Below, one piece after another: positions 14,766-36,208 of a DNA stretch of 64,000 nucleotides; positions within the stretch are counted from its first letter, which is position 1, and each line of letters starts with the position of its first letter. The notes under the pieces were generated by a model, which saw only the letters and a program-made list of their open reading frames with translations, was not told the origin of the DNA and did no database searches. The position numbers and the translations under genes were made by a program. The DNA lies in sequence record SRR31156797_2598; one strand, 5' to 3'.

Positions 14766-14774
14766 GGGGATAGT

Positions 14775-15611: not shown

Positions 15612-15625
15612 TTCAGGAGGCTACT

Positions 15626-18145
15626 ATGTGGCGTTCATTTATTTTAGGAATATTAATTATAACATTTAGCATAATACTTGCTGGATGCGGCGGAGGCGGA
15701 GGTTCCGGAGGCGACAGCACCGGAACAGCAACTTCTCTGACTGATGCAGCAGCAAGAATAGGTATGGACAACTGTATTAGTTGTCACGTTGGCGGAACAG
15801 CTGACGGTAGTTTAAAGTTTACAGAAGCTTATCAGAAGTGGCTTGTAGGCCCTCACGGTAACTTCCAGTATAAAATTGCAGCGGCTGACGGAGATGCGAC
15901 AGAGATCGCAGACGGATATGCAGCAACATCTCACGGAGAAGACAGACTGTACTTTACATATAACCACTTCTCAGACTGGCACTATAATGATAACAACAAC
16001 GTAGCTTTTGCTAAATTTGTTGGGTATCCTGTGCTCGCTGATATAGATGATGAGTGTAAGGTCTGTCACGGTCCTTCATCCTTAGACAACAGCGCTATTT
16101 CATCCCTTCCGGTAGTAGGTGCAATTACATCAGTTATCGCTCAAGCCAGCAGGGGTATAGTTCCTGACTGGAACAACGAGCTGACTGGTGCGGCAAACAA
16201 TATCTCTGTAGATTGGGATGTTGCTAATCAGAAAGCGAGAGCAGTTATCGGTTGTGAGTCTTGTCACGGTGGCGGAAGTATGCACCAGATAGACCCTAAT
16301 CTGCTTCCAAGCTTTACGCCAGATGCAGAGACATGCGGGACATGCCATAACTCTGGTCACGCAGGAAGTATCCTATCAGACTATCAGGCTTCTCCTCACG
16401 CTGTAAGTCTTTCTGGCAACACACACATTACTGCGGATGATGATGGAAAGATCAGCAACGCAAGATGTGCTAAGTGTCACACAGACGAAGGCGCAAGAGA
16501 ATATGTTGACTATGATTCTGAAACCTATTCAGGACTTAAAACAACATTTGAGAACTTTGACAAGATGGCATACGCAGACGTTTCAGACGTTTCATGCCGA
16601 ACATGTCACGATGCACATAACCCGCATGAGTACCTCGAGCCTGCAACAGTCACTGCTGGAGCTATAACAAAATCAGCGCAGTACAACACTTGTACAAACT
16701 GCCACCAGCACTCTGACTCAGCAGGAACAGATATAGTTGAGCCTTATCACCATCCGGTAACAACAGACCACGCATCTGCTAACCAGCATGGAGCATGGAA
16801 TGAAGTTATCATAGATACTCACTTTGATAAGATAACTAAAACGACTGCTGAGACTATTCAGGGTTATGTTATAGATATGGATGCTGAAGACGCATGCTCA
16901 TCTTGCCACAACCCACACACTTCAGATAATACTATCAATGAGCAGTGGGCGGAATCAGGGCACGGCGGTAAGATTAAAACTGTAAAAGACGATGCTTATA
17001 CAGCTGACAACGCAGTGGACTTACCTGATGTTGACGTAACTGAGACTACTGCTGCAGCTTGGGCACACTACGATTTTAAAGATGCAAGTACACAAGCTTG
17101 CCAGAGATGTCACACTTCAAGTGGCTTCTCTAATTTCGCAACAGACCCAGAGAACTACGATGCTACAACTAACTCTTTCGCTGCAACTGGCGACCAGAGA
17201 GAGATGCTTTACTGCTGGGGTTGTCACTCTGATAACGAAGGTACACTCAGAGATCCTGGTAATGCTGATGCAAGCCTCGTAGACCTCTATGATGCAACTG
17301 CTGCCGGCGATTCAGCTCGTCCACTTCAGCAGGTTGTTAACAGCAGAATCGAAGCTGTTGGCGATCTTGGCAATTCTAATACTTGTGTTCCATGCCACAG
17401 TGGACGCTTCACTGTTCCAGCTATGGTTGAAACTGCATACACAGACGACAGCAGTCTCGACGGTAATAGCGGAGGCTCAGGTACACACTACAAAGACACA
17501 GCAGGTACTATCTACAGATTCGCTGCTTATGAAATGCCAGGGCTTGACTATGAGAACAAGTCATACTTTAAGCACGACAAGATCGGTACAGCTGATGCTG
17601 ACGGCAACGAGCTTTACGAAGGTGTTGGAACAGCAGGTCCGTGTGCAACATGCCACATGACCGGCGATGGCGGACACGAATTTGAAGTTGCTGATTCTTC
17701 AACTGGTACAGGTGTCCCTGCTACGTGTAACGTAGAGTCATGCCACGGTGGACACACAATTCTCACTTCTGAAATTCTCGAGGAAGAGAAAACAGGATTT
17801 GAAGAAGCTGTCACTGCTATGAAGTTTTTCATAGAAAACAACTATGCAAGTGTGACAATCGCACTTTTAGAGAGCTATCCTTATGCGAGTTACACCGGAA
17901 ATACATATACAACAGATTTCGGTGCTAACGATCAGAATGCGTACGGAGCGGTTTATAACTATGTATACATCGCACATGAAGGTGGAGCTTTCGCACACAA
18001 CAGATTTTACGCTAAGCGTGTAATCTTTGATGCGATTGACCTCATGGATAATGGTACGCTTGACGGAACAATCAATCTTACCGGCTATGCAGATGCTTTT
18101 GCATGGTATGGTGGAGATGATGTTACTGCGGTAGCAAGACCGTAG
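15626..18145 (+). CDS. Outer-membrane lipoprotein multiheme cytochrome c (12 CxxCH plus one CX4CH), OmcB/OmcC-like
   Basis: AGGAGG SD before ATG 15626; lipobox LAGC. C-terminal GAFAHN..YAKR.IFD.ID..DNG.LD resembles the Geobacter OmcB family as recalled. Confidence 0.88.
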   Translation: MWRSFILGILIITFSIILAGCGGGGGSGGDSTGTATSLTDAAARIGMDNCISCHVGGTADGSLKFTEAYQKWLVGPHGNFQYKIAAADGDATEIADGYAATSHGEDRLYFTYNHFSDWHYNDNNNVAFAKFVGYPVLADIDDECKVCHGPSSLDNSAISSLPVVGAITSVIAQASRGIVPDWNNELTGAANNISVDWDVANQKARAVIGCESCHGGGSMHQIDPNLLPSFTPDAETCGTCHNSGHAGSILSDYQASPHAVSLSGNTHITADDDGKISNARCAKCHTDEGAREYVDYDSETYSGLKTTFENFDKMAYADVSDVSCRTCHDAHNPHEYLEPATVTAGAITKSAQYNTCTNCHQHSDSAGTDIVEPYHHPVTTDHASANQHGAWNEVIIDTHFDKITKTTAETIQGYVIDMDAEDACSSCHNPHTSDNTINEQWAESGHGGKIKTVKDDAYTADNAVDLPDVDVTETTAAAWAHYDFKDASTQACQRCHTSSGFSNFATDPENYDATTNSFAATGDQREMLYCWGCHSDNEGTLRDPGNADASLVDLYDATAAGDSARPLQQVVNSRIEAVGDLGNSNTCVPCHSGRFTVPAMVETAYTDDSSLDGNSGGSGTHYKDTAGTIYRFAAYEMPGLDYENKSYFKHDKIGTADADGNELYEGVGTAGPCATCHMTGDGGHEFEVADSSTGTGVPATCNVESCHGGHTILTSEILEEEKTGFEEAVTAMKFFIENNYASVTIALLESYPYASYTGNTYTTDFGANDQNAYGAVYNYVYIAHEGGAFAHNRFYAKRVIFDAIDLMDNGTLDGTINLTGYADAFAWYGGDDVTAVARP

Positions 18146-22164: not shown

Positions 22165-23988
22165 TTACCTGAACTCACTTTTAATTTTTTTATCTATCTC
22201 CTTCTTAAAGTTAACTGCTGCTTTGCGTTTCTTTTTAGTGATAGCATCAGCATCAGCCTGAGTGCGTACTATGTGTGTGCTGATAAATATCATCAGGTTC
22301 GTTTTCTCATGAGCTGTACCCTTGGTCTTAAAGAGCCATCCTATTACAGGGATTTTCGATAATCCGGGGATACCGCTCATATTGCGATCTGAATCATCTT
22401 TTAAAAGCCCTGAGATCACCATCATTGAACCATCTTTAAGTTTTACCTGTGTCGTTGTAGACCTTGTCAATGTTATCGGTGCTGTGACGGTTGCTGAGCC
22501 TGTAACTTTTTTGACTTCTTGTTCTATGGTAAGAGTGATTGTGTCGTTAGATGAAATTCTCGGCTGAACTTTTAGCCTTACTCCGACATCTCTGTAGTCG
22601 TATGACTGAACTGGGTTATTATTTGAGTCGTACTTAGTGCTTGTGAGGAAAGGTCTGTTCTCACCGACAAATACCTCTGCCTCTCCGTTATCAAGTGTTA
22701 GAATCTGCGGATTAGATAAAAGCTCTATCTCGCTGGCACTTTTTGAGAAGTTTACAAATGAGCTTATAGAGGGGAATGATACTCCGTTGTAGCTGATCAT
22801 ATTCCCTAAGATTCCTAAACTGAATCCTCCGGGTAGTGCGCTGTATGTACCACTAGTACCGACAGATTGTAGTGAACTTAGATTACCTGAGTTAAGATAG
22901 CCCACCGTTCCCATAGTTGAACCGGCTTCAGCAACTCCTTGCCACTCAACACCGACCTGCTTCCCACTGTCTAAACTTGTCTCCATAATAAGAGCTTCCA
23001 CATAAACCTGCTTTCTCTCTATATCGAGTTTTTCTATGAGGTGCTCTATCTTGGCGTAAAACTCGCTGTCGCCGAATGCTATAATAGAGTTAGTCGCTTT
23101 CTCATATGAGATAACTGGTTTGCCTGAAGACGAACTCTTTTTAGGTTTAGCTTGAGAGCTTGTCATCTTTTCAAGGACTTTACCCACGTCTTCAGCATTT
23201 GCATTGTTCAGGTAATACACCTTTGGCATTTTAAACGTAGATAATCTGTTTGAATCGAGCTGGTTTACCAAAGACTTCAATCGCTTATATTCAGCTTCAT
23301 CTGTCACAACCATAAGGATATTTGAAATCTCATCTGCAACCATAATTGGAGTATTACCCACCAGCATCTTTCGATCCATCTCTCCATACAGCTTTATAAG
23401 GTTCTTGCTTATATCAATGGCAGAAGTGTTATTGATCTCTATGATCCTTATAGTTTGTCCTTCTGCACGCATCTCAAGCTTTGTCATGAGCTTTTTGATC
23501 ATGGTTATACGTCCTATACTGTCACGCACGACAATAGTGTTAAGACCTTTCATTACCTCAACATATCCAGCTTTTGACTTAAGCTTGGTTAATGTAGCAC
23601 TTAGAATCTTAGTATTGAAGTTTCTGGCGTTTAGGATAGTTGTAATACGTGCATTTTCATTTCCGTTGCCGTATGAATCCTCCATACTTGCAATCTCTTG
23701 CTGGCGGACGATTTCAGAGTATGTGCCTCTGTCTACTATCTCAAGTCCGTTTGCCCGTAGAGTTGACTCAAATATCTCCATTATGTCTTCACTGTTCATC
23801 TCAGATGATGATTCGATACTCACCTGACCTTTCATGTCCTTCTTGTCGTATACGAAGTTTTTTCCTGTAAACTCAGAGACGAAGCTAACAAATTCATTAA
23901 GCTCCATGTCTCTGAAGTTCACATTAATTTCAGCTAAGGCTGTCACTGAAAAAAATAAAATTAAAAATATGAGTTTGAGGGTTTGCAT
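22165..23988 (-). CDS. gspD: Type II secretion secretin GspD
   Basis: INVNFRDMEL.EFV (N0 domain), VYYLNNANAEDV (N3), QVYVEALIME, SGIPGLSKIP..GWLF and KTNLMIFI. Confidence 0.9.
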   Translation of the reverse strand: MQTLKLIFLILFFSVTALAEINVNFRDMELNEFVSFVSEFTGKNFVYDKKDMKGQVSIESSSEMNSEDIMEIFESTLRANGLEIVDRGTYSEIVRQQEIASMEDSYGNGNENARITTILNARNFNTKILSATLTKLKSKAGYVEVMKGLNTIVVRDSIGRITMIKKLMTKLEMRAEGQTIRIIEINNTSAIDISKNLIKLYGEMDRKMLVGNTPIMVADEISNILMVVTDEAEYKRLKSLVNQLDSNRLSTFKMPKVYYLNNANAEDVGKVLEKMTSSQAKPKKSSSSGKPVISYEKATNSIIAFGDSEFYAKIEHLIEKLDIERKQVYVEALIMETSLDSGKQVGVEWQGVAEAGSTMGTVGYLNSGNLSSLQSVGTSGTYSALPGGFSLGILGNMISYNGVSFPSISSFVNFSKSASEIELLSNPQILTLDNGEAEVFVGENRPFLTSTKYDSNNNPVQSYDYRDVGVRLKVQPRISSNDTITLTIEQEVKKVTGSATVTAPITLTRSTTTQVKLKDGSMMVISGLLKDDSDRNMSGIPGLSKIPVIGWLFKTKGTAHEKTNLMIFISTHIVRTQADADAITKKKRKAAVNFKKEIDKKIKSEFR

Positions 23989-24021
23989 ATACTCTACTCC
24001 TGTTGGTTAAACTTGCTTTGT

Positions 24022-25623
24022 CTATAGTTTATATTTGTCAAAAATCCCTGCTAAGACTGATGACATGTTGTTTAATTTTTCATAGGTGCTACTTAGCTGA
24101 TTCGCTGATTGAATTCTGTTATTTGAAAATTCTTCAATTTTTCCTATCTCAACTGATATTTGCTCCGAAACTAAAGTCTGCTGCTCTGTTGCAACTGCAA
24201 TCTCTTCAATCATTGCTCTGTTCTCCGAGGAAGAATTCTCTATCTCACTTAGCTTCTGTGCGACTTCTGACATGACAGAAATGGTTGCTTCAATTTCATT
24301 TAGTGCAGTTTTCATAGTGGATTCAGTAGTTTTAGAATCCTGTTGAATTTTAGTGATTTTTTCCGTGACTTCTTTAGTCGCATCTGCCGTTTTCTCTGCA
24401 AGCTTACGAACCTCGTCAGCAACTACTGCAAATCCTCTTCCGTGCTCCCCAGCCCTTGCTGCTTCTATAGCGGCATTCAGTGCTAGCAGGTTTGTATTAT
24501 CTGCAATTTCATCAATGACATGTACAATGTCACCAATACTTACAACCTCTCTATTAAGTTCAAATACTTTATCTGCAAGATCAGTTGCTGATTTACCTGC
24601 AGAGCTTATACGTTTAACGGCATCATCAACTATCTTGTTGCCTGCGACTGATTCTTCGGCTGACTTATTACTGATGCTGATGGTTGTATCAACTATTTCT
24701 GAAATACTTGTAGCTGAATGCGCCATTTCGGCTGCACCTGCTGCTATCTCTCTGGATTTGTCCTGCTGGATATCTGCTTCCCGAATTGATTCATTGAGGG
24801 ACATTCCTAAAAGCTCTGACTCTGTGGATACTCCGTCAGCAATATCTTTGATTTGCCTGAATGAATCACCGAGATCCTTGAGCATCTTCTGAAGTGAAAA
24901 GATTAAGCAACCTATCTCATCTTCACACTTAGCTGTAATCTCTACGGAAAAATCCTTGTCTGATACTTTTTTGAAAGCATTATTAATATTGGAAAATGGA
25001 TTATAGAAGACTTTATTAAATATAAATATCAAGGTAAGAAGAATTAAAGCGAAACTAACAAAGGCTATGGTCATAGACTTTAACTCTGCTTCAGATATTG
25101 CATTGTCTATTTCACTCATGCTAAGACTTATGCTGACAGCACCGAGAACGTCGTTCTCCTGAATATTTGTATTATGGCAGTCAAAGCAATTAACTCCCAT
25201 GTATTCTCTAAGTGCTAAAAATGGAAAGAGCCCTTGCATGTAGTGTTCTCCATCAATATAGACTTCTTTAAATACAGGTTTACTGCCGCTGAAAACACTA
25301 TGTTCAAATTCATCCTGTGGGTAAGCATCCTCTGGTGCCTTGTCGTATTCAGCATCAAGTACGCGGTTTCTGAGCATACGGACTTTGAACATCTTATTCA
25401 TATGTTCCAGAAGCGATTCCTGTGATTCCATTGAGTCATTAAGCATGTAGTTGGTAGAGACCCCAAACATTGTTTCTGACATCTTCTTCATCTCGCTTTT
25501 AAGCTGAACTGTAGATAACTCCTCAATAGAGCTGTCAAAGAGAGTGAAATTTCCTAAGCTGGAGATCCCTAAAAGTAAAAGCATAGGGAGAATAATTTTC
25601 CATTTAATTGATAATCTATTCAT
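24022..25623 (-). CDS. Methyl-accepting chemotaxis protein with periplasmic heme-c sensor domain
   Basis: TM, periplasmic domain with CFDCH, TM, HAMP, then [34 protein letters not shown]. Confidence 0.93.
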
Positions 25624-26269
25624 ATGAAATCCTTTTTTGTTGGGAATCTAGTAGAATGCTTATGTAATAAAGATCAGCACCTATGATGAGTTCGGGCAGA
25701 AGAGCAAGCTTATTATAGACGCTGCTGTCATCGCTGTGCCTGAAAACAAACTCTCCAAATAGCTCTGCCCATGGGTGAAAATACTGTTCGATATAGTCTT
25801 TTTGTTTAATGAGAGAATATTCCTGATCTGTTGAATGTATCAGAGAGTTCATGATGGAGCAGTGGAGGTAAAAGCACTTCCCAAGAGACCCAAAGCTCAA
25901 ATTAGTATCAATATTTATCATCTCTAAAATATCTATCGGTAAATCTTTAGAACTGGCGAGAATAAGGAAATGATCAAGTAGTTTTGCGAGACCTTCTACC
26001 GACTCTTTGTTCTCGTATGCTTTAAGAGCACTGCTGAACTTTATTGTTTTATTGGCAGAATCTGAGGTTTCGAAAAGAAGTTTTGTTGAGCTCATTATCA
26101 TTTCAATGATATTCTTTTCATCATTTGTAAATATAAGTTTTTTTATAAAGTCTTCAATTTCCTGAATGTACCTATGCTCACCAGAATCACTAAAAAGATT
26201 TCCCATTACTGAATACATTTCAGATCGTTCTGCTGCTATTTCGTCTTTTGTTTCAATTGCTGTGGACAT
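25616..26269 (-). CDS. Divergent TorD/DmsD-like chaperone (second copy)
   Basis: R..MY..L N-terminus and [10 protein letters not shown]...F C-terminal helix parallel the protein at 27724-28401. Confidence 0.55.
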
Positions 26270-26297
26270 GTCTTTTTCCTTGTCAGTTTATTAAGTA

Positions 26298-26327
26298 GGT
26301 TTAGGGTGTAGCAGTACACCCTAAACC
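26298..26327. other. Perfect 13-bp-stem hairpin in the intergenic region
   Basis: GGTTTAGGGTGTA-GCAG-TACACCCTAAACC. Confidence 0.6.
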
Positions 26328-26405
26328 GTTTAGGGAGCAGGATCTTGAACTTCAGCTAAGGCCCCTATATGAAAAAAGCTAAAGGTCAAAAACCACGTAT
26401 ATGCC

Positions 26406-26437
26406 AAATTTAAAAGAGGGGATGTGCGCGTCCCCTC
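26406..26437 (-). terminator. Terminator-like hairpin downstream of tatA
   Basis: Minus strand reads GAGGGGAC-GCGCAC-ATCCCCTC followed by TTTTAAATTT. Confidence 0.55.
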
Positions 26438-26529
26438 CAAAACGAAGGTTAAAGTGTATCAGTCGGGTTCGTAACTATCTAACACTTAAACCTTTAGGGT
26501 TGTTCCTATCTGTTTATCAAGTAAAGGAA

Positions 26530-26697
26530 TTAGGGTGTAGTTTCCGTCGTATCCTCTTCTGCCTCTTTGACACTTTTTTTAAAGTTATTTAAGCCCCTCC
26601 CCATACTTTCACCAAGCTGAGGCAGCTTGCCTGCACCAAAGATGACTACAGCAATAACGAGAATTATAATTATTTCAGTACTTCCTAAACCAAACAT
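26530..26697 (-). CDS. tatA: Twin-arginine translocase subunit TatA, 55 aa (missing from ORF track)
   Basis: MFGLGSTEIIIILVIAVVIFGAGKLPQLGESMGRGLNNFKKSVKE: canonical TM, FG hinge and amphipathic helix. GAGG SD. Confidence 0.92.
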   Translation of the reverse strand: MFGLGSTEIIIILVIAVVIFGAGKLPQLGESMGRGLNNFKKSVKEAEEDTTETTP

Positions 26698-26707
26698 TTT
26701 AATTACC

Positions 26708-27727
26708 TCACTTATTGGATATTTTTTTCAGGTTAATAATTTCACTAAAAGAGATGTTGCCACCCATACAGGCTTTGGCACATACGCCGCAGCCTGTACA
26801 AGTTGAGGTTATATGTTCTATAAAACCTTCAGGAGTTTTAGTGATAGAGCCTGTGGGGCATAGCTTTGCGCATAAGCCACAGCTCATACATTTTTCATTA
26901 ATTTCTACACTGGCAATTGGTATGTCAGGTATATATTTCAATTTACTATTAAGTTGCGATTTAAGTTTCTTCAGAAGGCTGTCTGATAAAGTTTTTCTCT
27001 GAGAAATTCTACTATTAACATCAAATTTTATGCTGCTTGCAGACTCGTTACTTACAACATCCAATGTGTTTGCTATTCCTGCTGCCCAATCTCTGCCGAA
27101 GGATTTAAAAAAGTCTCTTCGTGTAAGTTGTTTTTCAGCAGTCTGCTTCTTTATCAATCCGAATTTCTTAACTTTTATAGTTATGTTGTTAGCTTCCGAC
27201 TCAGCTATTATGTTGCATTGTCTGATATTTTTAGAAAAGTCTATTAAGGTCTCTATCTGCTTTAAAAGGTAGCTCTTCCCATCGCCGATTGCGCAGGTCT
27301 TGCATCTTTCAGAGTAAGCTGAGATCTCCTTTACTCCGCCAGTTATCCAGTAGAGGAGGTATAGAGCATGTATACTGCCTAAACAGGTTACGTTGCCGAT
27401 CTTCTTCATACTATTATTAGAGCAAACTAAACTGAGCTTTCCTTCTGATTGCTTAGAAAGTATGGACTCACACCAGTTTATTTCATTAACACCTGTCCTG
27501 TTAAATACTCCATTATTACAGGCAGAAACACACTGCTCACAAGAAGTACACCTGTCTGGATTAATGGCTACACCTGTTCCGGGTCTGCCTATATTTATTG
27601 CATCAAAAGAACAAACATCCTTGCAGTCTGTGCAGTCTGCTTTTTTGTGATACATGTTTATGCAGTGGCTAGCATTAGGCATTACCGTTGAGCAACCGGG
27701 TGCTATTTTTAGTAAATTTTTTATCAT
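26708..27727 (-). CDS. Polyferredoxin-type 4Fe-4S protein
   Basis: Four CxxCxxxC / CxxCxxCxxxC clusters at the N- and C-termini, a Cys-containing central domain, and an internal TRRDFFK. Confidence 0.85.
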   Translation of the reverse strand: MIKNLLKIAPGCSTVMPNASHCINMYHKKADCTDCKDVCSFDAINIGRPGTGVAINPDRCTSCEQCVSACNNGVFNRTGVNEINWCESILSKQSEGKLSLVCSNNSMKKIGNVTCLGSIHALYLLYWITGGVKEISAYSERCKTCAIGDGKSYLLKQIETLIDFSKNIRQCNIIAESEANNITIKVKKFGLIKKQTAEKQLTRRDFFKSFGRDWAAGIANTLDVVSNESASSIKFDVNSRISQRKTLSDSLLKKLKSQLNSKLKYIPDIPIASVEINEKCMSCGLCAKLCPTGSITKTPEGFIEHITSTCTGCGVCAKACMGGNISFSEIINLKKISNK

Positions 27728-28401
27728 AACAATTTAGTTATATTTTCCCTGTCGATACGTGTTAAGACAGAGGGGATACCTGCTAAAGCCTTGTAAATGC
27801 TGCCTTCTTTAGCTTTAGCGTGGAGGCTTTCTGAAAAAGAATCTAGCCAATTCAATATATGATTATCAAGAAATTCGACCTGCAGCTTAAGTAGCTCGTC
27901 AATCTCAATGTTATTTTCAGTATTTAAGGTTTTATCAATTAGATTCTCCATAAACAGAAATTGAACTTCTAGAGAATCTTCGAGTTTATGAGCAGTAGCT
28001 TTAAGCTTAAATCCGCATTTAGTATAAAACTTCTTACATGCTTCCCATTGAACTCGCTTGATAAGCTTTGTTTTCGACAAAGCAGCAGATGCGTTATCTT
28101 CCACTCTGTCATCTCCAAATCTAAAATGATAAGTGAACTCTTGAGCACATGCGTTGATGAAATCCTTGTTTTCTGCCTTTTCTTTATTAGATGTTAACCA
28201 TTCTCTCATCGCTAACATAGAATCTTTCAGTGCCTGCCTGTCAGTTTTATCCTCAGTAATCTCAAGAAAATCTTTTGTAATATGTTCAAAGAAATCAACC
28301 CTGTCGTATTGAACAGGATTGCCTACAAGAAACGAAAGTTCTTTATACATACGTGCTCTTCCAAGCATATATTCTTCAAATGTTATTTTAATCATGCTCA
28401 T
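27724..28401 (-). CDS. TorD/DmsD-family molybdoenzyme chaperone
   Basis: RARMY..L, FY..CGF, EDSLEVQFLFM (variant of the DH..EL.F motif) and Q..FLDNHILNW...F. Confidence 0.8.
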   Translation of the reverse strand: MSMIKITFEEYMLGRARMYKELSFLVGNPVQYDRVDFFEHITKDFLEITEDKTDRQALKDSMLAMREWLTSNKEKAENKDFINACAQEFTYHFRFGDDRVEDNASAALSKTKLIKRVQWEACKKFYTKCGFKLKATAHKLEDSLEVQFLFMENLIDKTLNTENNIEIDELLKLQVEFLDNHILNWLDSFSESLHAKAKEGSIYKALAGIPSVLTRIDRENITKLL

Positions 28402-29677
28402 AGAAAACCTCTTGAATATTTATTAACTCAAAATGAATCTCACGGAGGAATTTAGCTAAACCGTTATTCTCAGTTACCAAGTAAGAGATCCCGACCTCTT
28501 CGACAGAAGAATTTTGCAACAAAGGCAAGTCTTTAATCCTGAATTCAATACTTTCTGACGATGTATCATATGTGTAATAACAACTGTTGTTTTCATCTAG
28601 AATATTGCGTATTTTTAAGGCATCTGCGCCGAAGGTCTTAGCTGTTTTAATAAAGAAATCTTTTTCATCAAATACTTCCAAAGCAGATTTTTTTGTAAGG
28701 AAATTTTGTTGAAAAATCTGAGAAGTGAGTTTATTTTCCAGTGAACAGTAGTGAACGCCTATCTTAAAGTCGTTATCAGCGGCATAGCTCATAAGCTCTA
28801 ATGCTGTTTCTTCGCTACCATTTACCGGAAGACCACCCGCATAATTGTACTTATATAAAACCTTATAAGGTCTATTTTTAATTTTGTACCCTTTCTCAAC
28901 ATATTCCTGCGCATTCTGCCAAGGAAAGAGAAACTCAAGAAGGTTTACACTAAAAATTTCGGCATCTTCTAGCATATCCAATAATTTTTTCATCTCTGAA
29001 AAGCTGTCGGGCATCACAGGTAATTCTACTGTGACTTCATTAATATATTTTTTACAAAGCTCTAGCTTAGCCCTTAGCTCTACAAGGTCATAACTGCCAT
29101 TATCTTCTTTTGATGATATACGTATTTCATTAAGGTATTTGGAAAGCTCTATAAGACTCTCTTCTGTGAGTAAATCCCCGTTGGTGTACAGGCGTGTATG
29201 TGTCTTTTTATTTGTACGTTTCACTTTTTTATAAAATTCAATACACTTGTTAGTATGAAGAAGTGGTTCCCCGCCAGTTACAGCAACAGACGTCAGCTTC
29301 ATCCCACTATCCACATAAGCCTCATACTCTTTGCTTATATCAAAGACCTTGCCTAATGATTCCTCATAATTTTGCTGATTTCTGTTAGAGCAAAAATAGC
29401 AATTTCTATTACAGTCTAGAGTCAAGATAAACGTGGCAGAGGAGTAACCTTCTCTACAATCTTCACAAGCTTTCGAAAGCCTGTTTAAGCAGAGACTTTT
29501 ACTGTTGTTGCGAAACTCAATATCTTTTCTCTCAATTTTAGTTAGAATAGCTTGTCTCTCGGCAAGATTGTCTTCTGCAAACTCCATTCCTTCTCTTATT
29601 AAGGCTTGCCTAAAGTGCTCATATATATCAATGTATCTCTTGGCATATTTTGCTAGTTCGTTATTATTACTCATCAT
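28388..29677 (-). CDS. Radical SAM protein of unknown function (COG2108-like); start may be 29674-29719
   Basis: CNRNCYFC (CX3CX2C), TGGEP, LYTNG, upstream S.AC..C..G and C-terminal HYCS. Confidence 0.88.
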   Translation of the reverse strand: MMSNNNELAKYAKRYIDIYEHFRQALIREGMEFAEDNLAERQAILTKIERKDIEFRNNSKSLCLNRLSKACEDCREGYSSATFILTLDCNRNCYFCSNRNQQNYEESLGKVFDISKEYEAYVDSGMKLTSVAVTGGEPLLHTNKCIEFYKKVKRTNKKTHTRLYTNGDLLTEESLIELSKYLNEIRISSKEDNGSYDLVELRAKLELCKKYINEVTVELPVMPDSFSEMKKLLDMLEDAEIFSVNLLEFLFPWQNAQEYVEKGYKIKNRPYKVLYKYNYAGGLPVNGSEETALELMSYAADNDFKIGVHYCSLENKLTSQIFQQNFLTKKSALEVFDEKDFFIKTAKTFGADALKIRNILDENNSCYYTYDTSSESIEFRIKDLPLLQNSSVEEVGISYLVTENNGLAKFLREIHFELINIQEVFYEHD

Positions 29678-29733
29678 CAATACATCCGGTTTTATAAATT
29701 GGGGCAGACAGCTGCCCACCCCAATAAGCTATA

Positions 29734-30342
29734 TTATTTATTCTTAAAAATTATCGAAGGTTTTACCTCTTCTGGAAGGATGTTCCCTGCAGCACCGTAT
29801 GAAGGATCAGGAAACCCTAAAACAGAGTCTGTAGATGCTGGATATTTCTTTTTGAGCTCAGCCAGATCACCAAACTCAATCGCCCTTTGAGGACATGAAC
29901 CGACACAAGAAGGAGCAAGCCCATCAGCTGTTCTGTCCCAGCATGCAGTACATTTCTGCATAGGATGATCTACCTTCCATGATGAAAGTGCATCAGGTTC
30001 CTGATTATCATCAGCAAACTGAGGAGCGTTGAAAGGGCACGACGCAAGACATTGCTTACAAGCTATACATGCATCACGATTAACAATAACAACACCATCT
30101 GTTTCTCTTTTATATATCGCCCCCATAGGGCACACAGCTACACAAGCAGGTGCTTCACAATGGTTGCAGCTCATAGTAAGTTGGTAAATTGACAAGTTAG
30201 GATATCCGCCAACTTCATTTTCTGTTCTCCTGCGCCAGAAAGCAGGTCCAGCATTAACGCTGTTCCAGTCTTTACAAGCAACAATACATGTGTCACAAGC
30301 AACACATCTTGTCTGATCAAAGTAAAATCCTTTTTGTGACAT
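29734..30342 (-). CDS. dmsB: DmsB-like four-cluster Fe-S subunit
   Basis: GFYFDQTRCVACDTCIVACKDWN, SCNHCEAPACVAVCP, CIACKQCLASCP, KCTAC and CVGSCP. Confidence 0.92.
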   Translation of the reverse strand: MSQKGFYFDQTRCVACDTCIVACKDWNSVNAGPAFWRRRTENEVGGYPNLSIYQLTMSCNHCEAPACVAVCPMGAIYKRETDGVVIVNRDACIACKQCLASCPFNAPQFADDNQEPDALSSWKVDHPMQKCTACWDRTADGLAPSCVGSCPQRAIEFGDLAELKKKYPASTDSVLGFPDPSYGAAGNILPEEVKPSIIFKNK

Positions 30343-30352
30343 CTTATCCTCC

Positions 30353-33300
30353 CTATGCCTTCACGATTTTCAAACGGGTATCACTACTCATTGTCATTCC
30401 AAAACAAATTCTTGAAGGTCTACCTGAAACTAGTCCGTTTGCAGCACCACCTAGGTCTGTTCCGCTAGTCTCTCTGGAGAACCAAGCACCATCACCAATT
30501 TGTGCACTGTACGGAGCAATTCTGTTTGTGTATGTCACATAAGCGTATGTATCACCGTAGGTACTGGAAACTGAGACTCTGTCACCTTCCTGAGCTCCAA
30601 TCTCGCCCATGTGCTGAGGGTTAACGTAAACTGGTTCGTATACGCCTTTATCCCAAACACCATCACGCATGTTCCTATCGCCAGACATGTATGCTCTATT
30701 ACCATTACCGTCTTGCTTGTAAAGCTCGTTTAAGCGAGCAACATTTCCAAGAGTAGAGTGTGCACGGTAATTATAGTGTCCGACTTGTTTTACAAACTTA
30801 AAACCGGAACTTTCTAATCCAAGTAAATCCGGATGTGAGCCGTCAGCATGCTTACCTTCAACAGCAGGTATATATACTGGGATAGGGTATGCATATCTCC
30901 TTGCAGTTGAGTTTGCCATTGTGCCTGCAGTTAGAATTACACCGCCGTTACGTAGAACTGCTGTTCCATCGTCGTCAGTTGTTACAGAATCAATATTAGG
31001 CTGTCCACCTGCCTCATAGTCCTCGATCATGGCCTGATGATAAGCCTCAATCTTGCCTGAAAGTGTATTCAAAGGGTTTGATGTAGGATCATTTCTGAAT
31101 TTCTGCTTAGGGAAATATTTTATCTTTTCTGGGCGCTGAGTAACCATGGAAACACCACCAAGCTCTTGGATTTCATCCCATGTCTGGTCGATCTCTCCTG
31201 CAGCTTGCCCTTTGTTCCAGTTATATTCAGACCACTCATAGTCGGTCTCTACCTTTGTACCTGTTCCGTCTGCCATTGTTTTGAATTCATCTTCTACACC
31301 AAGCTTAGCCGCTAAGCGTCTTGCAATCTCGAATTCATTTAGAGCTTCACCTGGCGGATTAGATACTTTAGGCATAACGAGTGCCTCTGCTGTGAGCCAA
31401 CCGCATGTTTCACCCCATTTTTCACCAGGTCCAGCACATGGCAGCACATAGTCAGACAGTACGCTACTCGCTGTAAAAAATAGATCGCCGGTGAGAATTG
31501 TATCAATGTTATAATTGCCGCTGGAGTCTTTAGCTTTACAAAGGTCTGCTATCTCTCTTGAGCTACCATGCTGACCACCAAAATTTCCACCAAAATTAAA
31601 GAGCATTTTTATAGGTGTCTGAGCGTTATTAGATCTCTGATAATTCCATTTTGAAGTTTTGGCTGTACCTGCACAACGAACATAGTCAGCCCATACCTGG
31701 AGTGAAATACCATTCATTGTAGCGGCATTTGGCATTGGACCTGATCTTGCAGTATTGCCTACAAAAGGTCCTAGCTCGCCACCCATAAGTGTCAATTTAG
31801 TAAAGTCATAGGTTTCTGCGGAGATATCAGATGATCCCATGTTATCCCCACCAGTCTTAACTTTGTCCAGCATAGTTCCAGGATATTTTGTTTCAACTTC
31901 ATGTGAGAAACCGTAGCTTCTTCCTTCTTCACCAAAATTTTTAGTAATAGCTGCAAGAATCGGACCTAAATTTACAGGTTGTTCGCCCTCTGAATGTCTC
32001 TGCAATCCACCAGAGACCCATGTTGTCACCTTTGTTGTAGCGTACATCTCTGCAAGCTCACGTATTTTAGCCGCCGGGACTCCTGTAATATTTTCTGCCC
32101 ATTCTGGAGTTTTTGGTGTCTGCCCATAAAGGGGTGCGGTTTTGCCATATAAACCGTCGGTTAAAGGGACGTCATATCCTATGGTTTCTGGATATACTGA
32201 GATCCCCTGATTGATTGTGGTACCTGATGCCATCCCTGTGTGTGCCTCTGCATCACCTGACATGGTCGCTAGAGTAAGCCTGTTGTCTGTTCCCATAACA
32301 TAGGCAGAAAGCGATGAACCAGCAGGAACCTGATATCCTGTAGGAGTTGCGTTAATGTCTGCGTAGTAATGATTAGGTATTGTGTCATCAAAGAAGCCAT
32401 GGACATATTTTCTGATGAATTCTTCGTCAAGCCATGGGCTGGCTTTCATCGTTCCATCACTATTCCATGTTTGAACTACCATCTCATGTATCATTGCAAG
32501 CATTAGTGCAGAGTCTGTTGTTCCAGTAATTCCAATGTAATCATCTGCCATGCCTTCAGCGGTTCTAGTATACCTAGGGTCGATGACAGTTACCTTGACA
32601 CCTGATTCTCTTGCCTTAGTTACATAGTAAGCAGTTGAGGGACCCACTCTTGCTTCTGCTGGGTTAAATGCCCAAAGGACAAGGTTGTCAGCATTTTTAA
32701 CATCACCTCGCCAGTTAGCCGTCCTAAGGGCAGCTGCTGTGCCTGTTTCTTTTATCAGTCCTTCATGGTCTATGAAGAAGAATGAATATGTGTGTTGAGG
32801 GTAGCTTAGATCAAGAACCCATATTACTGGTCCTGAATCAGCTCCAAAAAGTTTTGTCAAATTCGCAATAGTATTTGACTGCTCAGACCTATCAGATGGA
32901 GCAAGGCAATTAAAAAAAGCATTACCGCCATACGTGTCATAAACATTCTGCATTCTTTCAGCAATTTCATCTATTGCCTGATCCCACTCTATCTCAACGA
33001 AGCCAGTGATATCTCCACGCTCCTTCGTTTGCTTAAGAGGCTTAGTTAATCTGTCATTCCTATACCACCAGTCAATCTTAGCTCTACACTTAAGACAGGA
33101 ACGTATCTGAGCTTTACCTTCGAAAACGTCGCCATCTTCAGTATTTTCGTCTGTAGTAATTCTCTTAACAACGCCATCTTCAACATAGTATTTGCTAATA
33201 CAGCCACCACCACAGTTGTGTGGGGTAGACCCTAAGATTGTTTTACCTTCGATACTGTCAGGTTGAAGATCAGGCGTAACCTCTTCAAAGTATGTCTTCT

Positions 33301-33415
33301 CTCCGCTGCCGCCTCCGCCGCAGCCTGCAAGAGTCGCTGTGGCAGCAGTAGCACTCATAGCTTTCAAGACACTACGCCTTGAAACTTTACTATTCAATTT
33401 ATCTTTAATATTCAT
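30353..33415 (-). CDS. dmsA: DMSO-reductase-family molybdopterin oxidoreductase catalytic subunit; Tat-dependent lipoprotein
   Basis: SRRSVLK twin-Arg plus LAGC lipobox; HNCGGGC...CLKC; RL.KPL, IDPRYT, TDSAL..AM, KTPEWA..ITG, PL.T.SGKIE, HY..RAHST. Putative Ser Mo-ligand in DLSYPQ. Confidence 0.88.
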   Translation of the reverse strand: MNIKDKLNSKVSRRSVLKAMSATAATATLAGCGGGGSGEKTYFEEVTPDLQPDSIEGKTILGSTPHNCGGGCISKYYVEDGVVKRITTDENTEDGDVFEGKAQIRSCLKCRAKIDWWYRNDRLTKPLKQTKERGDITGFVEIEWDQAIDEIAERMQNVYDTYGGNAFFNCLAPSDRSEQSNTIANLTKLFGADSGPVIWVLDLSYPQHTYSFFFIDHEGLIKETGTAAALRTANWRGDVKNADNLVLWAFNPAEARVGPSTAYYVTKARESGVKVTVIDPRYTRTAEGMADDYIGITGTTDSALMLAMIHEMVVQTWNSDGTMKASPWLDEEFIRKYVHGFFDDTIPNHYYADINATPTGYQVPAGSSLSAYVMGTDNRLTLATMSGDAEAHTGMASGTTINQGISVYPETIGYDVPLTDGLYGKTAPLYGQTPKTPEWAENITGVPAAKIRELAEMYATTKVTTWVSGGLQRHSEGEQPVNLGPILAAITKNFGEEGRSYGFSHEVETKYPGTMLDKVKTGGDNMGSSDISAETYDFTKLTLMGGELGPFVGNTARSGPMPNAATMNGISLQVWADYVRCAGTAKTSKWNYQRSNNAQTPIKMLFNFGGNFGGQHGSSREIADLCKAKDSSGNYNIDTILTGDLFFTASSVLSDYVLPCAGPGEKWGETCGWLTAEALVMPKVSNPPGEALNEFEIARRLAAKLGVEDEFKTMADGTGTKVETDYEWSEYNWNKGQAAGEIDQTWDEIQELGGVSMVTQRPEKIKYFPKQKFRNDPTSNPLNTLSGKIEAYHQAMIEDYEAGGQPNIDSVTTDDDGTAVLRNGGVILTAGTMANSTARRYAYPIPVYIPAVEGKHADGSHPDLLGLESSGFKFVKQVGHYNYRAHSTLGNVARLNELYKQDGNGNRAYMSGDRNMRDGVWDKGVYEPVYVNPQHMGEIGAQEGDRVSVSSTYGDTYAYVTYTNRIAPYSAQIGDGAWFSRETSGTDLGGAANGLVSGRPSRICFGMTMSSDTRLKIVKA

Positions 33416-33432
33416 TATAATTATTCCTCCAT

Positions 33433-33933
33433 TTACTTCGTGTAAGTTTGTGGACTATGGCTGGTTTCATGACAGGTGTAGCAGGTTGTCTCCTGAACTG
33501 GGAAGTGGCAGCTTCCGCAATGTCTGTTCTGTGTGTCACCTGCTCCGCCCCAGCCTGGGCGATGTGTAATAGGTGGTGTCGACTTATGACACTCCACACA
33601 TGTATCCTCTGTATGACAGGTTCTGCATGTTTCTCTGTCCCATCTAGCCTTATAAGCGTGAAGCTTGCGTTTCCATGAGCTGTTATGGCTTCTAGGCTTT
33701 ATTTCTTGGTGACAGGTAATGCACTCCACTCTGTCAGTATGGCATTCATAACATTCTGCTGAATTTGCATTCGCTGCCTTACCGTGGAGCTCTGTCCAGT
33801 TCCTGTCATGAGTTTCAGGCTTTTCCGACTCATACGCAAAAGCACTGTAAAAACTAACTACGACTAACAGAAGCACCATAGCCGTAAATGAAGTGATCGT
33901 GCATATCAGTGAAAATTCTTTTTTATTCATCAT
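33433..33933 (-). CDS. Periplasmic hexaheme cytochrome c
   Basis: Signal peptide; CYECH, CITCH, CRTCH, CVECH, CGSCH, CYTCH; H...W...H repeat units like the decaheme at 14775. Confidence 0.9.
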   Translation of the reverse strand: MMNKKEFSLICTITSFTAMVLLLVVVSFYSAFAYESEKPETHDRNWTELHGKAANANSAECYECHTDRVECITCHQEIKPRSHNSSWKRKLHAYKARWDRETCRTCHTEDTCVECHKSTPPITHRPGWGGAGDTQNRHCGSCHFPVQETTCYTCHETSHSPQTYTK

Positions 33934-33945
33934 TTCTAATTCTCC

Positions 33946-35382
33946 TTAGATAGCGATGTTGAGCCAAAGCTCGGCCACATAATTCTTCTCAAAGTTAGAA
34001 GCATCACTACCTAGCATCTCGCTCTCTTCGAGACCACCATCAGCTGTCACACTGAATTTCTCTGCAAAGGTATATTGACCACCTATATAGTAATATCTGA
34101 TCCAGTCCTGCATCTCATCATCCTCAGAGTCGTACTCGAACCTCTCAAAGGTTGTTCCGAACCATATGTCTGCATTATCATTAATTACTTGCGTTACCTG
34201 ACCGCCGAAAGTAACTGACCTGTCACTTTCACCGTAATCAGTGGAATCAACATCCCACAGGTCTGCATTGATAGAGATATAGGTGTTTTCAGTTGGGAAT
34301 CTGACTAGATCGAGAAAAGCTGAATATCTCTTATAGTCTCTGTTATCGAGTTCGTAACCATCAGCATTTTTAAACTGACCGCTTACTCCTACGACGAGAT
34401 TAGAGGTTATCCCCTGAGATAGCTTTACTTTAACTTTGTTGTATTTACCGTATGGAAAGAGTGTGTAAGTTATAGGGTTAGTTACATAACTACCTTCGTT
34501 ATTAGCAATTTCATCGAGCAACTCCTCATAGTCCACTGCTACTGTTGTCTTAGTTTCCGGTATTCTGTAGATACCACCTAGCTTATAATATGCATCTGAG
34601 TCCACGGATGCATACTCGCCATAAGCAGAACCTTTACCTAAGCTAAGATCAGCTCTTACCTTATAGAGGTCGTTCTTCTGGTCAGAGACATCTATATCTG
34701 TATATATAGCTCTGACTTTTAACATCTCGAAAGGCACAACCTCTATACCACCACCATAAAGCATGTCATCTTCAGTGTCGTAATAGAAAGATACTGGTTT
34801 ACCACTGTAAACAAAGATCTTAAATTTATCATCAAGGAGAGCTACTTGTGCGTCTGCTCCATCTAAATGATAAGTATCAATCCTGTCTATATAGACACGC
34901 CCTAATGTTACTTCTGTGTTTTTGATTACATCTGAGAATTTCAGATATGCATGATACAGCCTAGGCGAGCCATTCTGCTCTGCCTCTTCTACATCAAGAG
35001 AATCGTCATAGAAGTAATATCTGTTCTTACCCCAATCGTCACCGCTACGACCGTTAAGGTCTTTCGCTGCACGTAAAAAGAGTGCCCCAGAGACAGTTCC
35101 ACCATTTTTCAGCTCACCATCGGCATAACGAACACGTAGATACTGGTAAATATCCATATCTGATGCGTAGTCGTTATCAAATTGTCTGAATTTGGTAGTA
35201 AGGCTCAGGTTTGCAGACCCGCCAAAAATGTCATGGTTTATCCCTTGGAACTTGAAACCATTGCTGGTTATATGCTGCGACCATGAATCAGGCGTTGTGT
35301 AGTCTGCATCTTCCAATCCGTCAGCAACAGCAAATGATGAAATCATAAAAGCCGACAGAATGAAAATACAAAGTCTTCCCAT
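33946..35382 (-). CDS. Outer-membrane beta-barrel porin (conduit type)
   Basis: Signal peptide, aromatic alternating beta-strands, RLYHAYL...TLGR..D...LDGA pattern. Directly upstream of a multiheme gene. Confidence 0.72.
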   Translation of the reverse strand: MGRLCIFILSAFMISSFAVADGLEDADYTTPDSWSQHITSNGFKFQGINHDIFGGSANLSLTTKFRQFDNDYASDMDIYQYLRVRYADGELKNGGTVSGALFLRAAKDLNGRSGDDWGKNRYYFYDDSLDVEEAEQNGSPRLYHAYLKFSDVIKNTEVTLGRVYIDRIDTYHLDGADAQVALLDDKFKIFVYSGKPVSFYYDTEDDMLYGGGIEVVPFEMLKVRAIYTDIDVSDQKNDLYKVRADLSLGKGSAYGEYASVDSDAYYKLGGIYRIPETKTTVAVDYEELLDEIANNEGSYVTNPITYTLFPYGKYNKVKVKLSQGITSNLVVGVSGQFKNADGYELDNRDYKRYSAFLDLVRFPTENTYISINADLWDVDSTDYGESDRSVTFGGQVTQVINDNADIWFGTTFERFEYDSEDDEMQDWIRYYYIGGQYTFAEKFSVTADGGLEESEMLGSDASNFEKNYVAELWLNIAI

Positions 35383-35445
35383 AGTTACTCTCCTTTGTTC
35401 CTTTTCTAAACAGAATTAGAACTTTCTATCGCCATCGGAACTTAA

Positions 35446-35519
35446 TCCAACGAACGTTTGAGACATATTAAAACTCTGCCGGTTGCCCTTGTCAAGAAAA
35501 AAATCAAACGAACGTTGGA
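35446..35519 (-). promoter_or_regulatory. Sigma70 promoter of the reductase cluster flanked by two palindromic operators
   Basis: Minus-strand TTGACA (35490-35495), 17 bp, TTTAAT (35467-35472). Boxes TCCAACGAACGTTTGA (35446-35461) and TCAAACGAACGTTGGA (35504-35519). Confidence 0.75.
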
Positions 35520-35611
35520 TGAGCCACTTAAAGTGTTCTTGAATTTAGAAATAACAGTAAACGATAATTTTTTTTATCGACATTATTTGTTACCTGTGCT
35601 AATAGTTAAAT

Positions 35612-36208
35612 ATGAAAGAAAAAAACGTAAACTATATACAAACAAAAACGAATATAATTGAAAAGACGGTAGACTTAGCAGCACTATCTGGGCTTACATC
35701 TGTAAGTATGAGAGCAATTGCTAAAAATGCATGCCTAGACACATCTACCCTGTATTATTATTTCAAGAATAAAGAAGAGCTTCTTTATGAATCTGTTGTA
35801 TATATTAATAACTGTATAGAAAAGGAAGTAATGAAAATTAACCTTGATGACCTGTCTACTAATGAAGAAAAGTTTAAAACAATGGTACGGTTCATGTACT
35901 CTTATCTCATACAAAAACCTAACCATGCGAGTGTGATACGTCAGGCTTCCATTATGAGCCATATCTTCTTTAGCATCGAAAAGAGAAATGAACTTTTTGT
36001 CCAAACTACTAAGAACTTTAGATTTTGCAGATTTATTGAATCATTGAAGGATGATTCTAGTATTATTGCTGAATTCGGTAGTATGGTAACTTTCTTTTGT
36101 TATATGCCTATTTATGATCTTGCTATGAATACATATAGTCCTACTTCTGCTAATGATAAACAGCTTGAAATGTATATAGATTCACTTTGGAAATCGATAC
36201 AAAACTGA
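35612..36208 (+). CDS. TetR/AcrR-family transcriptional regulator
   Basis: SMRAIAK.A.....TLYYYFKNKEEL helix-turn-helix. Confidence 0.93.
   Translation: MKEKNVNYIQTKTNIIEKTVDLAALSGLTSVSMRAIAKNACLDTSTLYYYFKNKEELLYESVVYINNCIEKEVMKINLDDLSTNEEKFKTMVRFMYSYLIQKPNHASVIRQASIMSHIFFSIEKRNELFVQTTKNFRFCRFIESLKDDSSIIAEFGSMVTFFCYMPIYDLAMNTYSPTSANDKQLEMYIDSLWKSIQN

Follow-up and report, generated by a model that had tools for sequence, protein, structure and literature searches.

The 64,000-nucleotide stretch of DNA from sequence record SRR31156797_2598 (hereafter the window) carries, between positions 22165 and 36208, a cluster of 13 open reading frames (ORFs) that includes a molybdoenzyme gene; 12 of them lie on the minus strand within 22165-35382, and the thirteenth is a divergent gene for a TetR-family regulator. 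A preliminary description, made from the sequence alone, had presented this cluster as a self-contained, independently assembled system in which an extracellular molybdoenzyme is wired to a porin and a hexaheme cytochrome. Family scans and translations found all the genes that it named, on the minus strand and where it had placed them; rather than a singular assembly, however, the cluster proved to be one copy of a widespread, multi-copy module.

The conserved core of this module begins with the gene for a 478-aa beta-barrel protein (the “porin”; 33946-35382, on the minus strand like all the core genes that follow), which carries a Sec signal peptide as well as an N-terminal Y-x-TPDSW motif that is conserved. 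It continues with the genes for a small periplasmic hexaheme c-type cytochrome (33433-33933; 166 aa, approximately 133 aa when mature, with six CXXCH motifs), the catalytic subunit of a bis-MGD (MGD being molybdopterin guanine dinucleotide) molybdoenzyme with a twin-arginine translocation (Tat) signal and a lipobox (30353-33415; 1020 aa), a DmsB-like four-cluster ferredoxin subunit (29734-30342), a radical S-adenosylmethionine (SAM) protein of an uncharacterized family (28388-29719), a TorD/NarJ-type chaperone (27724-28401), a cytoplasmic polyferredoxin that is NapF-like in part (26708-27727), and a TatA/E translocase subunit (26530-26697), whose gene is the last of the core operon. From the barrel gene to tatA, neighboring genes overlap or are spaced by no more than 17 nucleotides, and the cytochrome gene is flanked by gaps of 12 and 17 nucleotides. 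Because the same gene order recurs across many genomes, the cluster is far beyond what chance would produce.

The molybdoenzyme and its maturation genes

The molybdoenzyme matches PF00384 (80.9 bits) and PF01568 (32.6 bits), in both cases above the cut-offs, and its Ser204 is aligned to the DYS motif of TorA (7l5i), the serine of which we take to be the Mo ligand. Across all 22 aligned family sequences there is no variation in the twin arginines, in the cysteines predicted to hold the iron-sulfur (Fe-S) cluster FS0 (C68, C72, C107, and C110), or in Ser204. By its domains, FS0 cysteines, and serine at the Mo-ligand position, the protein is assigned to the dimethyl sulfoxide (DMSO) reductase, or bis-MGD, superfamily. 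The best profile matches are DmsA/YnfE (E 4.8e-97), the BisC family (E 2.4e-53), and TorA (E 2e-40), but the score against the DmsA/YnfE model TIGR02166 (325.9 bits) falls below its cut-off of 777.7 bits. In a FastTree phylogeny of 64 rows, a quick tree with some long branches that gives a coarse picture only, the window enzyme falls in a clade of 28 rows (support 97). Two further clades stand beside it, a DmsA/YnfE-like one with 14 rows (support 99) and a third with 10 rows (support 100), and the three clades form one group of 52 rows (support 97), with Tor-like enzymes outside it. The label “DmsA-like” in the preliminary description thus holds at the level of the DmsA superclade but does not extend to DmsA proper, of which the window enzyme is, on this tree, a sister clade.

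The closest relatives of the enzyme are from Deferribacterota, namely “Deferribacteres bacterium DY0037” (85% identity), Geovibrio sp. (72%), and Seleniivibrio sp. (71%), and the host bacterium is placed in this phylum; the E. coli DmsA/YnfE-family proteins are approximately 26% identical to the window enzyme. Two metagenome scans recovered none of the closest relatives. A locus scan with the enzyme-family alignment picked up generic DmsA motifs, and its 79 loci are mostly ordinary DmsA loci; four of them (L003, L004, L005, and L024) were used as loci of Deferribacterota or Mucispirillum, and L066, which is titled likewise, was not used.

The N-terminus of the enzyme, read directly from the translation, is SRRSVLK...LAGC-GGGGSGE. 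The TAT_signal model matches it at E 0.0033, under its cut-off, and the lipobox cysteine, Cys32, is at least 90% conserved in the 22-sequence family alignment; the claim of a twin-arginine signal combined with a lipobox was therefore upheld, as a motif that is present in the window enzyme and conserved across the family. A tether of this kind, LAGC-GGGGGSGG, is found also on a 12-heme lipoprotein cytochrome encoded at 15593-18145 of the window. The fetched loci contain 53 distinct family enzymes with a length of 850 aa or more, and these were surveyed for signal motifs and for neighbors within 3.5 kb. Thirty-two of the 53 have the twin arginines, the lipobox, and both a barrel and a cytochrome gene nearby; seven have the twin arginines and the lipobox without both neighbors, and several of these (e.g., L002, L120, and L147) lie at a locus or contig edge. 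In two cases the pair is nearby and the lipobox pattern was unmatched, one being a VVGCE sequence missed by the pattern and the other an enzyme in locus L194, and in 11 cases the N-terminus is separated from the remainder of the gene. The last of the 53, in locus L005, has no lipobox cysteine and has no barrel, cytochrome, or membrane-anchor candidate near it; this enzyme is probably a periplasmic variant. At L005:8884-15375, an Fe-S subunit, a radical SAM protein, and a chaperone follow the plain-Tat enzyme, and after them comes a secreted protein of 265 aa without a family.

The partner subunit scores 167.8 bits against TIGR02951 (cut-off, 214.1 bits) and matches Fer4_11, and its N-terminus, MSQKGFYFDQTRC, is without a signal peptide of its own. 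A scan of the 54 ORFs of the window found no match to the NrfD and DmsC families, as the preliminary description had stated for the cluster; among the other module loci, in which Pfam was run on a sample of the unlabeled ORFs, no obvious anchor gene was seen.

The remaining core genes encode proteins of maturation and export type. The radical SAM protein matches PF04055 and Fer4_12 and has no relative in the PDB at E 0.01, and its 1397 homologues are named merely “radical SAM protein” or “PFL-activating-enzyme-like.” Its gene is syntenic in nine loci (L001, L002, L119, L131, L132, L142, L144, L147, and L151), and we propose that it may be a maturation factor. We know of no radical SAM-dependent modification in the DMSO reductase superfamily. 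In the clusters marked by L118:11840-14182 and L120:13821-16142 (with L118:14160-15923 and L120:10943-12703), enzymes of the third clade (979-985 aa, 24-26% identical) lie behind a barrel-cytochrome pair and are followed by radical SAM proteins that bind B12 (773-780 aa) and by a second protein with a B12 domain; radical SAM genes therefore accompany two enzyme clades. The chaperone (PF02613, E 5.3e-13) is encoded in both of the gene orders in which the module occurs. The polyferredoxin matches several Fer4 families and, partially, the napF and rnfB models, and no signal peptide is visible in its translation; we propose that it may serve the radical SAM protein as a maturation factor or as an electron donor. 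The TatA protein scores 68.3 bits against TIGR01411 (cut-off, 53.9 bits), and a tatA gene occupies the equivalent position in L147.

The barrel-cytochrome pair and its distribution

The only family match of the barrel protein is a weak one to Porin_4 (E 1.6e-4); neither the MtrB_PioB Pfam family nor any NCBIfam model matched at E 0.01. Its AlphaFold2 model has 22 long strands (predicted local distance difference test [pLDDT] 75.6, predicted template modeling score [pTM] 0.69), in agreement with the earlier identification of the gene as that of a porin. In the model, nearly all of the approximately 458 residues of the mature protein lie in the barrel, and there is no plug domain. In a structure search against representatives, the best matches are the 22-strand TonB-dependent transporters FyuA (Z 17.8, 387 residues aligned) and BtuB (Z 17.4), with MtrB (6r2q_B) ranked under them (Z 15.6, 354 residues aligned, root-mean-square deviation 4.4). 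TonB-dependent transporter barrels of such size are closed by a plug domain of approximately 150 residues. Foldseek returned only generic barrels for the model, at template modeling scores of 0.3-0.5, including 18-strand Occ-type substrate porins, and the protein atlas gave only unnamed clusters and the protein's own cluster, auto-named “alginate export domain-containing.” One protein, P0165, has 1123 aa, of which the last 400 residues match the barrel profile and the long N-terminal part is membrane-protein-like; either a fusion or an error of gene calling could account for it.

In 21 cytochrome sequences, the 12 heme cysteines and 13 histidines (six of the motifs and seven others) are invariant and an eighth non-motif histidine is nearly so, a pattern that would fit bis-His hemes. 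The fifth heme motif of other clades reads C-x3-C followed by Q, Y, or V. Relatives of the cytochrome have short, cleavable AxA signal peptides, so that a soluble periplasmic protein, not a membrane-anchored one, is expected; on the same ground its identity as an inner-membrane quinol dehydrogenase of the CymA/NapC type was rejected. No NCBIfam model matched the cytochrome at E 0.01, the Pfam cytochrome matches were sub-threshold, and a profile search of the PDB sequences gave no cytochrome better than E 0.29.

Barrel and cytochrome form an obligate pair that is almost never separated. Among the 33 loci that were retrieved with the barrel, 31 have the cytochrome gene directly after the barrel gene and two break off within the latter, and a barrel match lies directly upstream in 54 of the 58 cytochrome-profile hits that have room upstream. 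The barrel family is present in 37 of 68 Deferribacterota genomes, several of which carry five to seven full-length copies; in genome G025, four copies at a spacing of approximately 5.8 kb represent tandem four-gene modules. The cytochrome-profile scan reached beyond the phylum to Nitrospirota, a metagenome-assembled genome (MAG) of Geopsychrobacteraceae, Planctomycetota, Hydrogenedentota, Omnitrophota, and Brocadiia; copies of the module occur in Nitrospirota and in the Geopsychrobacteraceae MAG.

The recurrence of the core gene order across loci and genomes answers the synteny search that the preliminary description had proposed. In two related MAGs (L001 and L002), the barrel gene is followed in order by those for the cytochrome, enzyme, Fe-S subunit, radical SAM protein, chaperone, and polyferredoxin, whereas in Mucispirillum the order is enzyme, Fe-S subunit, chaperone, barrel, and cytochrome. 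The third gene beside the pair also varies, and its product is nearly always a redox lipoprotein. Among the 58 cytochrome hits, a Mo enzyme lies downstream in 16 and upstream in 13; 14 are followed by a c-type cytochrome containing two or more CXXCH motifs, 11 of these with a lipobox-like motif; 11 have nothing or the locus end next, and four have something else. In Planctomycetota and Brocadiia (L188, L192, L198, L201, and L208) the next gene encodes a lipoprotein with eight to ten hemes, and the cytochrome of the pair is longer, with approximately 13 CXXCH motifs. Mo enzymes of all three tree clades are found behind the pair, and the pair therefore behaves like a fixed unit whose lipoprotein partner can be exchanged. 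Some of the Mucispirillum pairs are followed by diheme lipoproteins. At L123:6741-9617 and in L167, L169, L173, L175, L180, and L183, one or two such lipoproteins and no Mo enzyme follow the pair, and one of the diheme proteins has a weak match to an MtrC/MtrF domain (E 9e-4, under the cut-off). Directly upstream of several modules lie genes for a TorA-like enzyme (approximately 790-818 aa, with a plain Tat signal) and a 170-aa monoheme protein (L001:653-3639, L117:3871-6843, and L131:10910-13946; also L145, L148, and L184).

In the Mucispirillum relatives, a homopolymer of eight to ten G residues lies directly after the Tat signal and lipobox of the enzyme genes (..YGCSKD..IIY-GGG..), at loci L124, L125, L126, L127, and L129 (genomes G055 and G063) and, in MAGs of Mucispirillum, at L156, L164, L166, L168, L171, L172, and L177. 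Of the 12 distinct cases, four are in frame, and in eight the mature enzyme is in another frame than the signal peptide. The pattern looks like slipped-strand phase variation, the alternative being a sequencing error in the homopolymer. Contingency loci of this pattern are typical of surface-exposed molecules.

A possible surface reductase and its alternatives

The reading to which we incline, with somewhat better than even confidence, is that the module encodes a surface-exposed reductase fed via a minimal trans-outer-membrane heme wire, because the barrel and cytochrome form a constant pair with an interchangeable lipoprotein partner, the barrel is large and plugless, no gene for a quinol-oxidizing subunit lies in the window, and the Tat-lipoprotein signal is conserved. 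The molybdoenzyme and its Fe-S partner would be folded and loaded with cofactors in the cytoplasm with the help of the TorD-like chaperone, and the radical SAM protein and polyferredoxin would probably assist cofactor loading or folding. The Tat system would co-export the two subunits on the twin-arginine signal of the enzyme, which would be lipidated at Cys32 and displayed at the cell surface on its flexible, glycine-rich tether. The six-heme cytochrome would fill the lumen of the plugless 22-strand barrel and so provide a short heme wire across the outer membrane, which would receive electrons from periplasmic or inner-membrane donors and pass them to the Fe-S subunit and thence to the Mo center. 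There, some S-oxide, N-oxide, or oxyanion would be reduced by oxygen-atom transfer, these being the substrates to which the serine ligand and the nearest profiles appear to point. Such an arrangement points to a compact mode of cell-surface respiration of a kind not described before.

Complex prediction, which the preliminary description had proposed for the porin and hexaheme, gave a score of 0.49 for the barrel with the cytochrome (runs, 0.49, 0.47, and 0.54) against 0.00 for the best control. The mark for a pass is reached by 51 of 78 solved complexes and two of 108 mismatched pairs; scores of 0.60 or less, however, are those of only five of the 78 solved complexes and of all four passing mismatches (of 180). 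The runs share at least 55% of their contacts, and the pLDDT of the partner is 51-54. The idea of a joint structure thus received a weak pass, and no interface was obtained.

Several other points likewise weigh against a heme wire leading to a surface enzyme. In the barrel model, a 40-residue N-terminal segment and two long loops are of low confidence and could constrict the lumen, and the AlphaFold2 model of the cytochrome is poor (pLDDT 64, pTM 0.40) and fixes neither its length nor its heme geometry; the cytochrome is also without an assigned electron donor. The Planctomycetota enzyme of L194, which lies behind a barrel-cytochrome pair, is truly without a lipobox, and the contrast offered by L005 is a single case. 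The search for an anchor gene covered the window, and such a gene may be encoded elsewhere in the genome. The adjacency of a GspD gene was seen in this window alone, and secretins are near-universal in the phylum. Moreover, lipoproteins may face the periplasm, and we know of no sorting rule for Deferribacterota; the substrates of DmsA-type enzymes, being small and soluble, could gain entry by way of a porin.

These last considerations lead to an alternative that we regard as unlikely and yet the strongest of the rivals, in which the enzyme is periplasmic and anchored in the outer membrane's inner leaflet or in the inner membrane, the cytochrome is a soluble donor like NapB or NrfB, and the barrel is a substrate-specific import pore duplicated with each paralogue. 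Inward-facing lipoproteins are, as a matter of general knowledge, the default, as small and soluble substrates are for this enzyme family, and the possession of its own barrel by each paralogous module would fit substrate specificity. The Occ-type substrate porins among the Foldseek matches are in keeping with this idea, and the best PDB sequence matches of the cytochrome are NapB dihemes, yet these have E-values of 0.29 and 0.58 and are not significant. On the other hand, an import pore would have nothing to import in the 14 of 58 cases in which the pair precedes multiheme lipoprotein cytochromes without an enzyme, and a plugless 22-strand barrel is far bigger than a small-molecule pore requires. 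The barrel and cytochrome, moreover, stay together while the third gene changes, and the loss of the lipobox in the family member without the pair (L005) would be left unexplained.

We consider it very unlikely that electrons flow in reverse, with a surface or periplasmic molybdoenzyme oxidizing a reduced substrate and the heme wire carrying the electrons inward. It is generally known that the DMSO reductase superfamily has oxidizing members and that the MtoAB and PioAB conduits run inward, and the sequence fixes no direction; however, the nearest characterized profiles (DmsA/YnfE, the BisC family, and TorA) are those of reductases, and the characterized Ser-ligated clades are mostly reductases of S-oxides, N-oxides, or oxyanions. 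The host phylum, in addition, is described as one of anaerobic respiration in the part of its genome literature cited here (PMC6896113). Co-location without coupling, in which the pair would be a metal-reducing conduit in its own right and the Mo enzyme would only share its operon, is the least credible reading. Related pairs do occur alone or with cytochromes only (e.g., L123, L133, L153, and L158), but the narrow gaps of 12 and 17 nucleotides around the window cytochrome gene, the block duplication of the four-gene unit in G025, the adjacency of enzyme and pair in both gene orders, and the tracking of the pair by the lipobox all speak for coupling.

If the surface-reductase reading is taken together with the distribution of the pair, it is tempting to speculate further, although we hold this joint proposal with rather less than even confidence. 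The plugless 22-strand barrel, threaded by a five- or six-heme cytochrome of approximately 130 residues, may represent an unrecognized and widespread class of conduit that serves as a universal socket for surface lipoprotein oxidoreductases, namely the three DmsA-like clades, diheme proteins, and large multiheme cytochromes. It would be present in up to approximately seven copies per genome and would be phase-switched by poly-G tracts in gut Mucispirillum, and its molybdoenzymes would need dedicated radical SAM maturation (by B12-radical SAM proteins in one clade).

The closest functional parallel is DmsEFAB of Shewanella oneidensis, a DMSO/iodate reductase (PMC9048795, PMC9732548), which the preliminary description had cited as an equivalent of separate origin. 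As far as the portions of these papers cited here go, both systems combine a periplasmic multiheme carrier and a barrel with a DmsAB-type reductase that lacks DmsC, the enzyme is Tat-dependent in both (in the window, by its signal motif), and a GspD secretin, implicated in the Shewanella system, adjoins the window module. In contrast, the window cytochrome has six hemes in 166 aa where that of Shewanella has 10 and does not match the DmsE/MtrA family, and the barrel, with its 22 predicted strands, unlike that of DmsEFAB has no MtrB/PioB family match. The window enzyme, unlike that of Shewanella, belongs to a sister clade of DmsA and is itself a predicted lipoprotein, and its Fe-S subunit is without the Tat signal that the Shewanella DmsB homologues have (PMC9732548). 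The window module also adds a radical SAM protein and a polyferredoxin and occurs in multiple copies and in other phyla. It would be functionally like DmsEFAB, and by its sequences it falls outside that family; the comparison supports a functional parallel of separate origin, in which the surface location is a prediction.

With respect to layout, the module also resembles the Geobacter-type porin-cytochrome (Pcc) systems, which, in the part of PMC4245776 relevant here, have the same order of barrel, periplasmic multiheme cytochrome, and lipoprotein redox protein. As judged by gene arrangement, the window module has this Pcc layout, with barrel, cytochrome, and lipoprotein redox partner in one operon, and the relatives of the pair in Planctomycetota and Brocadiia, with a lipoprotein of eight to ten hemes as the third gene, have the classical one. 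Here, however, the third component is a molybdoenzyme with an Fe-S subunit, and the periplasmic cytochrome is smaller than in Geobacter. For Denitrovibrio acetiphilus, the relevant part of the same survey gives a single pcc cluster per genome; this bacterium has at least two paralogues of the window enzyme family, which was evidently uncounted. The DmsABC and YnfEFGH enzymes of E. coli likewise have bis-MGD, the FS0 motif, a serine at the Mo position, a four-cluster DmsB partner, a TorD-family chaperone, and Tat export; the window enzyme differs in lacking DmsC, being longer by approximately 200 residues, having a lipobox, and being coupled to a barrel and a cytochrome. The ExtHIJKL system of Geobacter, which the part of PMC5877670 cited here links to the reduction of the oxyanions selenite and tellurite, similarly has a porin-like protein, a small five-heme cytochrome, and a non-cytochrome partner, a rhodanese-like protein unrelated to the window molybdoenzyme. 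In the same source, ExtI is said to resemble phosphate-selective porins with approximately 12 predicted strands, whereas the window barrel is without a match of the Porin_O_P type.

No description of the module was found in the main text, supplementary tables aside, of open-access papers and preprints. The Deferribacter genome papers, in the parts cited here, treat Psr-type enzymes and the classical pcc cluster only (PMC6896113, PMC13186404), and a term search of the accessible part of the DmsEFAB-homologue survey, in which MtoAB and PioAB are named, returned no instance of the word Deferribacter (PMC9732548). An uncharacterized DMSO-reductase-like system of M. schaedleri is upregulated in inflammation according to a section of PMC5285517.

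Extracellular respiration by a non-cytochrome enzyme has so far been documented essentially for Shewanella DmsEFAB. If the surface-reductase reading is true, the same solution would have arisen from unrelated parts and would be common across a phylum, in hosts that include Denitrovibrio, Geovibrio, Seleniivibrio, and the gut bacterium Mucispirillum, with a reach into Nitrospirota and Thermodesulfobacteriota. A six-heme wire would rank among the smallest trans-outer-membrane conduits and would be attractive for structural work and conduit engineering. The many paralogues would imply a range of substrates reduced at the surface (iodate, selenate, sulfoxides, or N-oxides, for example), with possible consequences for the cycling of elements and for survival in the inflamed gut.

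Accessory genes and other clusters of the window

A gap of 260 nucleotides lies 3′ of tatA and holds a terminator-like hairpin on the minus strand (26415-26438; eight pairs, five of them G-C, followed by a T-rich tail), at a frequency of such sites in the region (eight, against 8.9 +/- 3.2 in shuffles) that shows no excess. Beyond it are three accessory genes, likewise on the minus strand, for a 217-aa protein (25616-26269), a methyl-accepting chemotaxis protein (MCP) with one periplasmic CFDCH motif (24022-25623; MCPsignal, E 2.8e-43), and the type II secretion secretin GspD (22165-23988; TIGR02517 415.6 bits, cut-off 351.35 bits). The 217-aa protein, which had been called a second chaperone, has no Pfam or NCBIfam match even at E 0.1 and no usable match in the protein atlas, and it is not conserved. 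Against the profile of the cluster chaperone, hhalign gave 85.9% (E 5.2e-6) over the last 59 columns only, and because of this short span the label is weakly supported; the protein is possibly a divergent TorD-like chaperone.

In L001 and L002, the module is followed by a response regulator gene and not by MCP or GspD. The response regulator of the window shares only 29% identity with its counterpart behind the L001 module, which gives no evidence of orthology. The MCP, GspD, and 217-aa protein, which the preliminary description had counted as parts of the system, are thus absent from these syntenic loci and stand behind the 260-nucleotide gap; they probably form a separate transcription unit outside the conserved module, and a link of this unit to the reductase is possible. 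The neighbors of GspD are the MCP on one side and, on the other, a membrane protein of 112 aa, after which come a histidine kinase and a response regulator, and neither T2SSE nor other gsp families were matched among the 54 ORFs of the window. Its counterpart in genome G001 (54% identical) sits between a PDZ-containing protein and the T2SSE ATPase. GspD-family secretins score above the cut-off in 53 of the 68 Deferribacterota genomes, with or without the module, and the family therefore does not track it.

On the other side of the core operon, the divergent TetR-family gene (35612-36208, plus strand; TetR_N, E 7.9e-11) is separated from the barrel gene by an intergenic region of 229 nucleotides (35383-35611) that contains two copies of AACGTTCGTT approximately 55 nucleotides apart. 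Each copy lies within an imperfect palindrome, and both are candidate operator sites.

A second cytochrome cluster, in the style of a porin-cytochrome system, occupies 13551-18145 on the plus strand. It encodes a secreted protein of 404 aa without a family, a 278-aa protein that has 10 CXXCH motifs, and the 850-aa lipoprotein with 12 CXXCH motifs whose LAGC-GGGGGSGG tether is mentioned above; a sigma-54 activator gene (11766-13286) lies on the opposite strand. The possibility that this cluster is a paralogue of the barrel-cytochrome family was rejected because the 404-aa protein does not match the profile of the barrel and five related genomes yielded no copy of it. At 44656-48907 (plus strand), a cluster encodes a pair of DUF362 proteins, one DUF6599 protein, a NapH-like membrane protein (Fer4_5), and a polyferredoxin, with three aldo-keto reductase genes upstream, and at 5057-7951 (plus strand) a cytochrome P460 family gene is followed by those for a histidine kinase and an OmpR-type response regulator.

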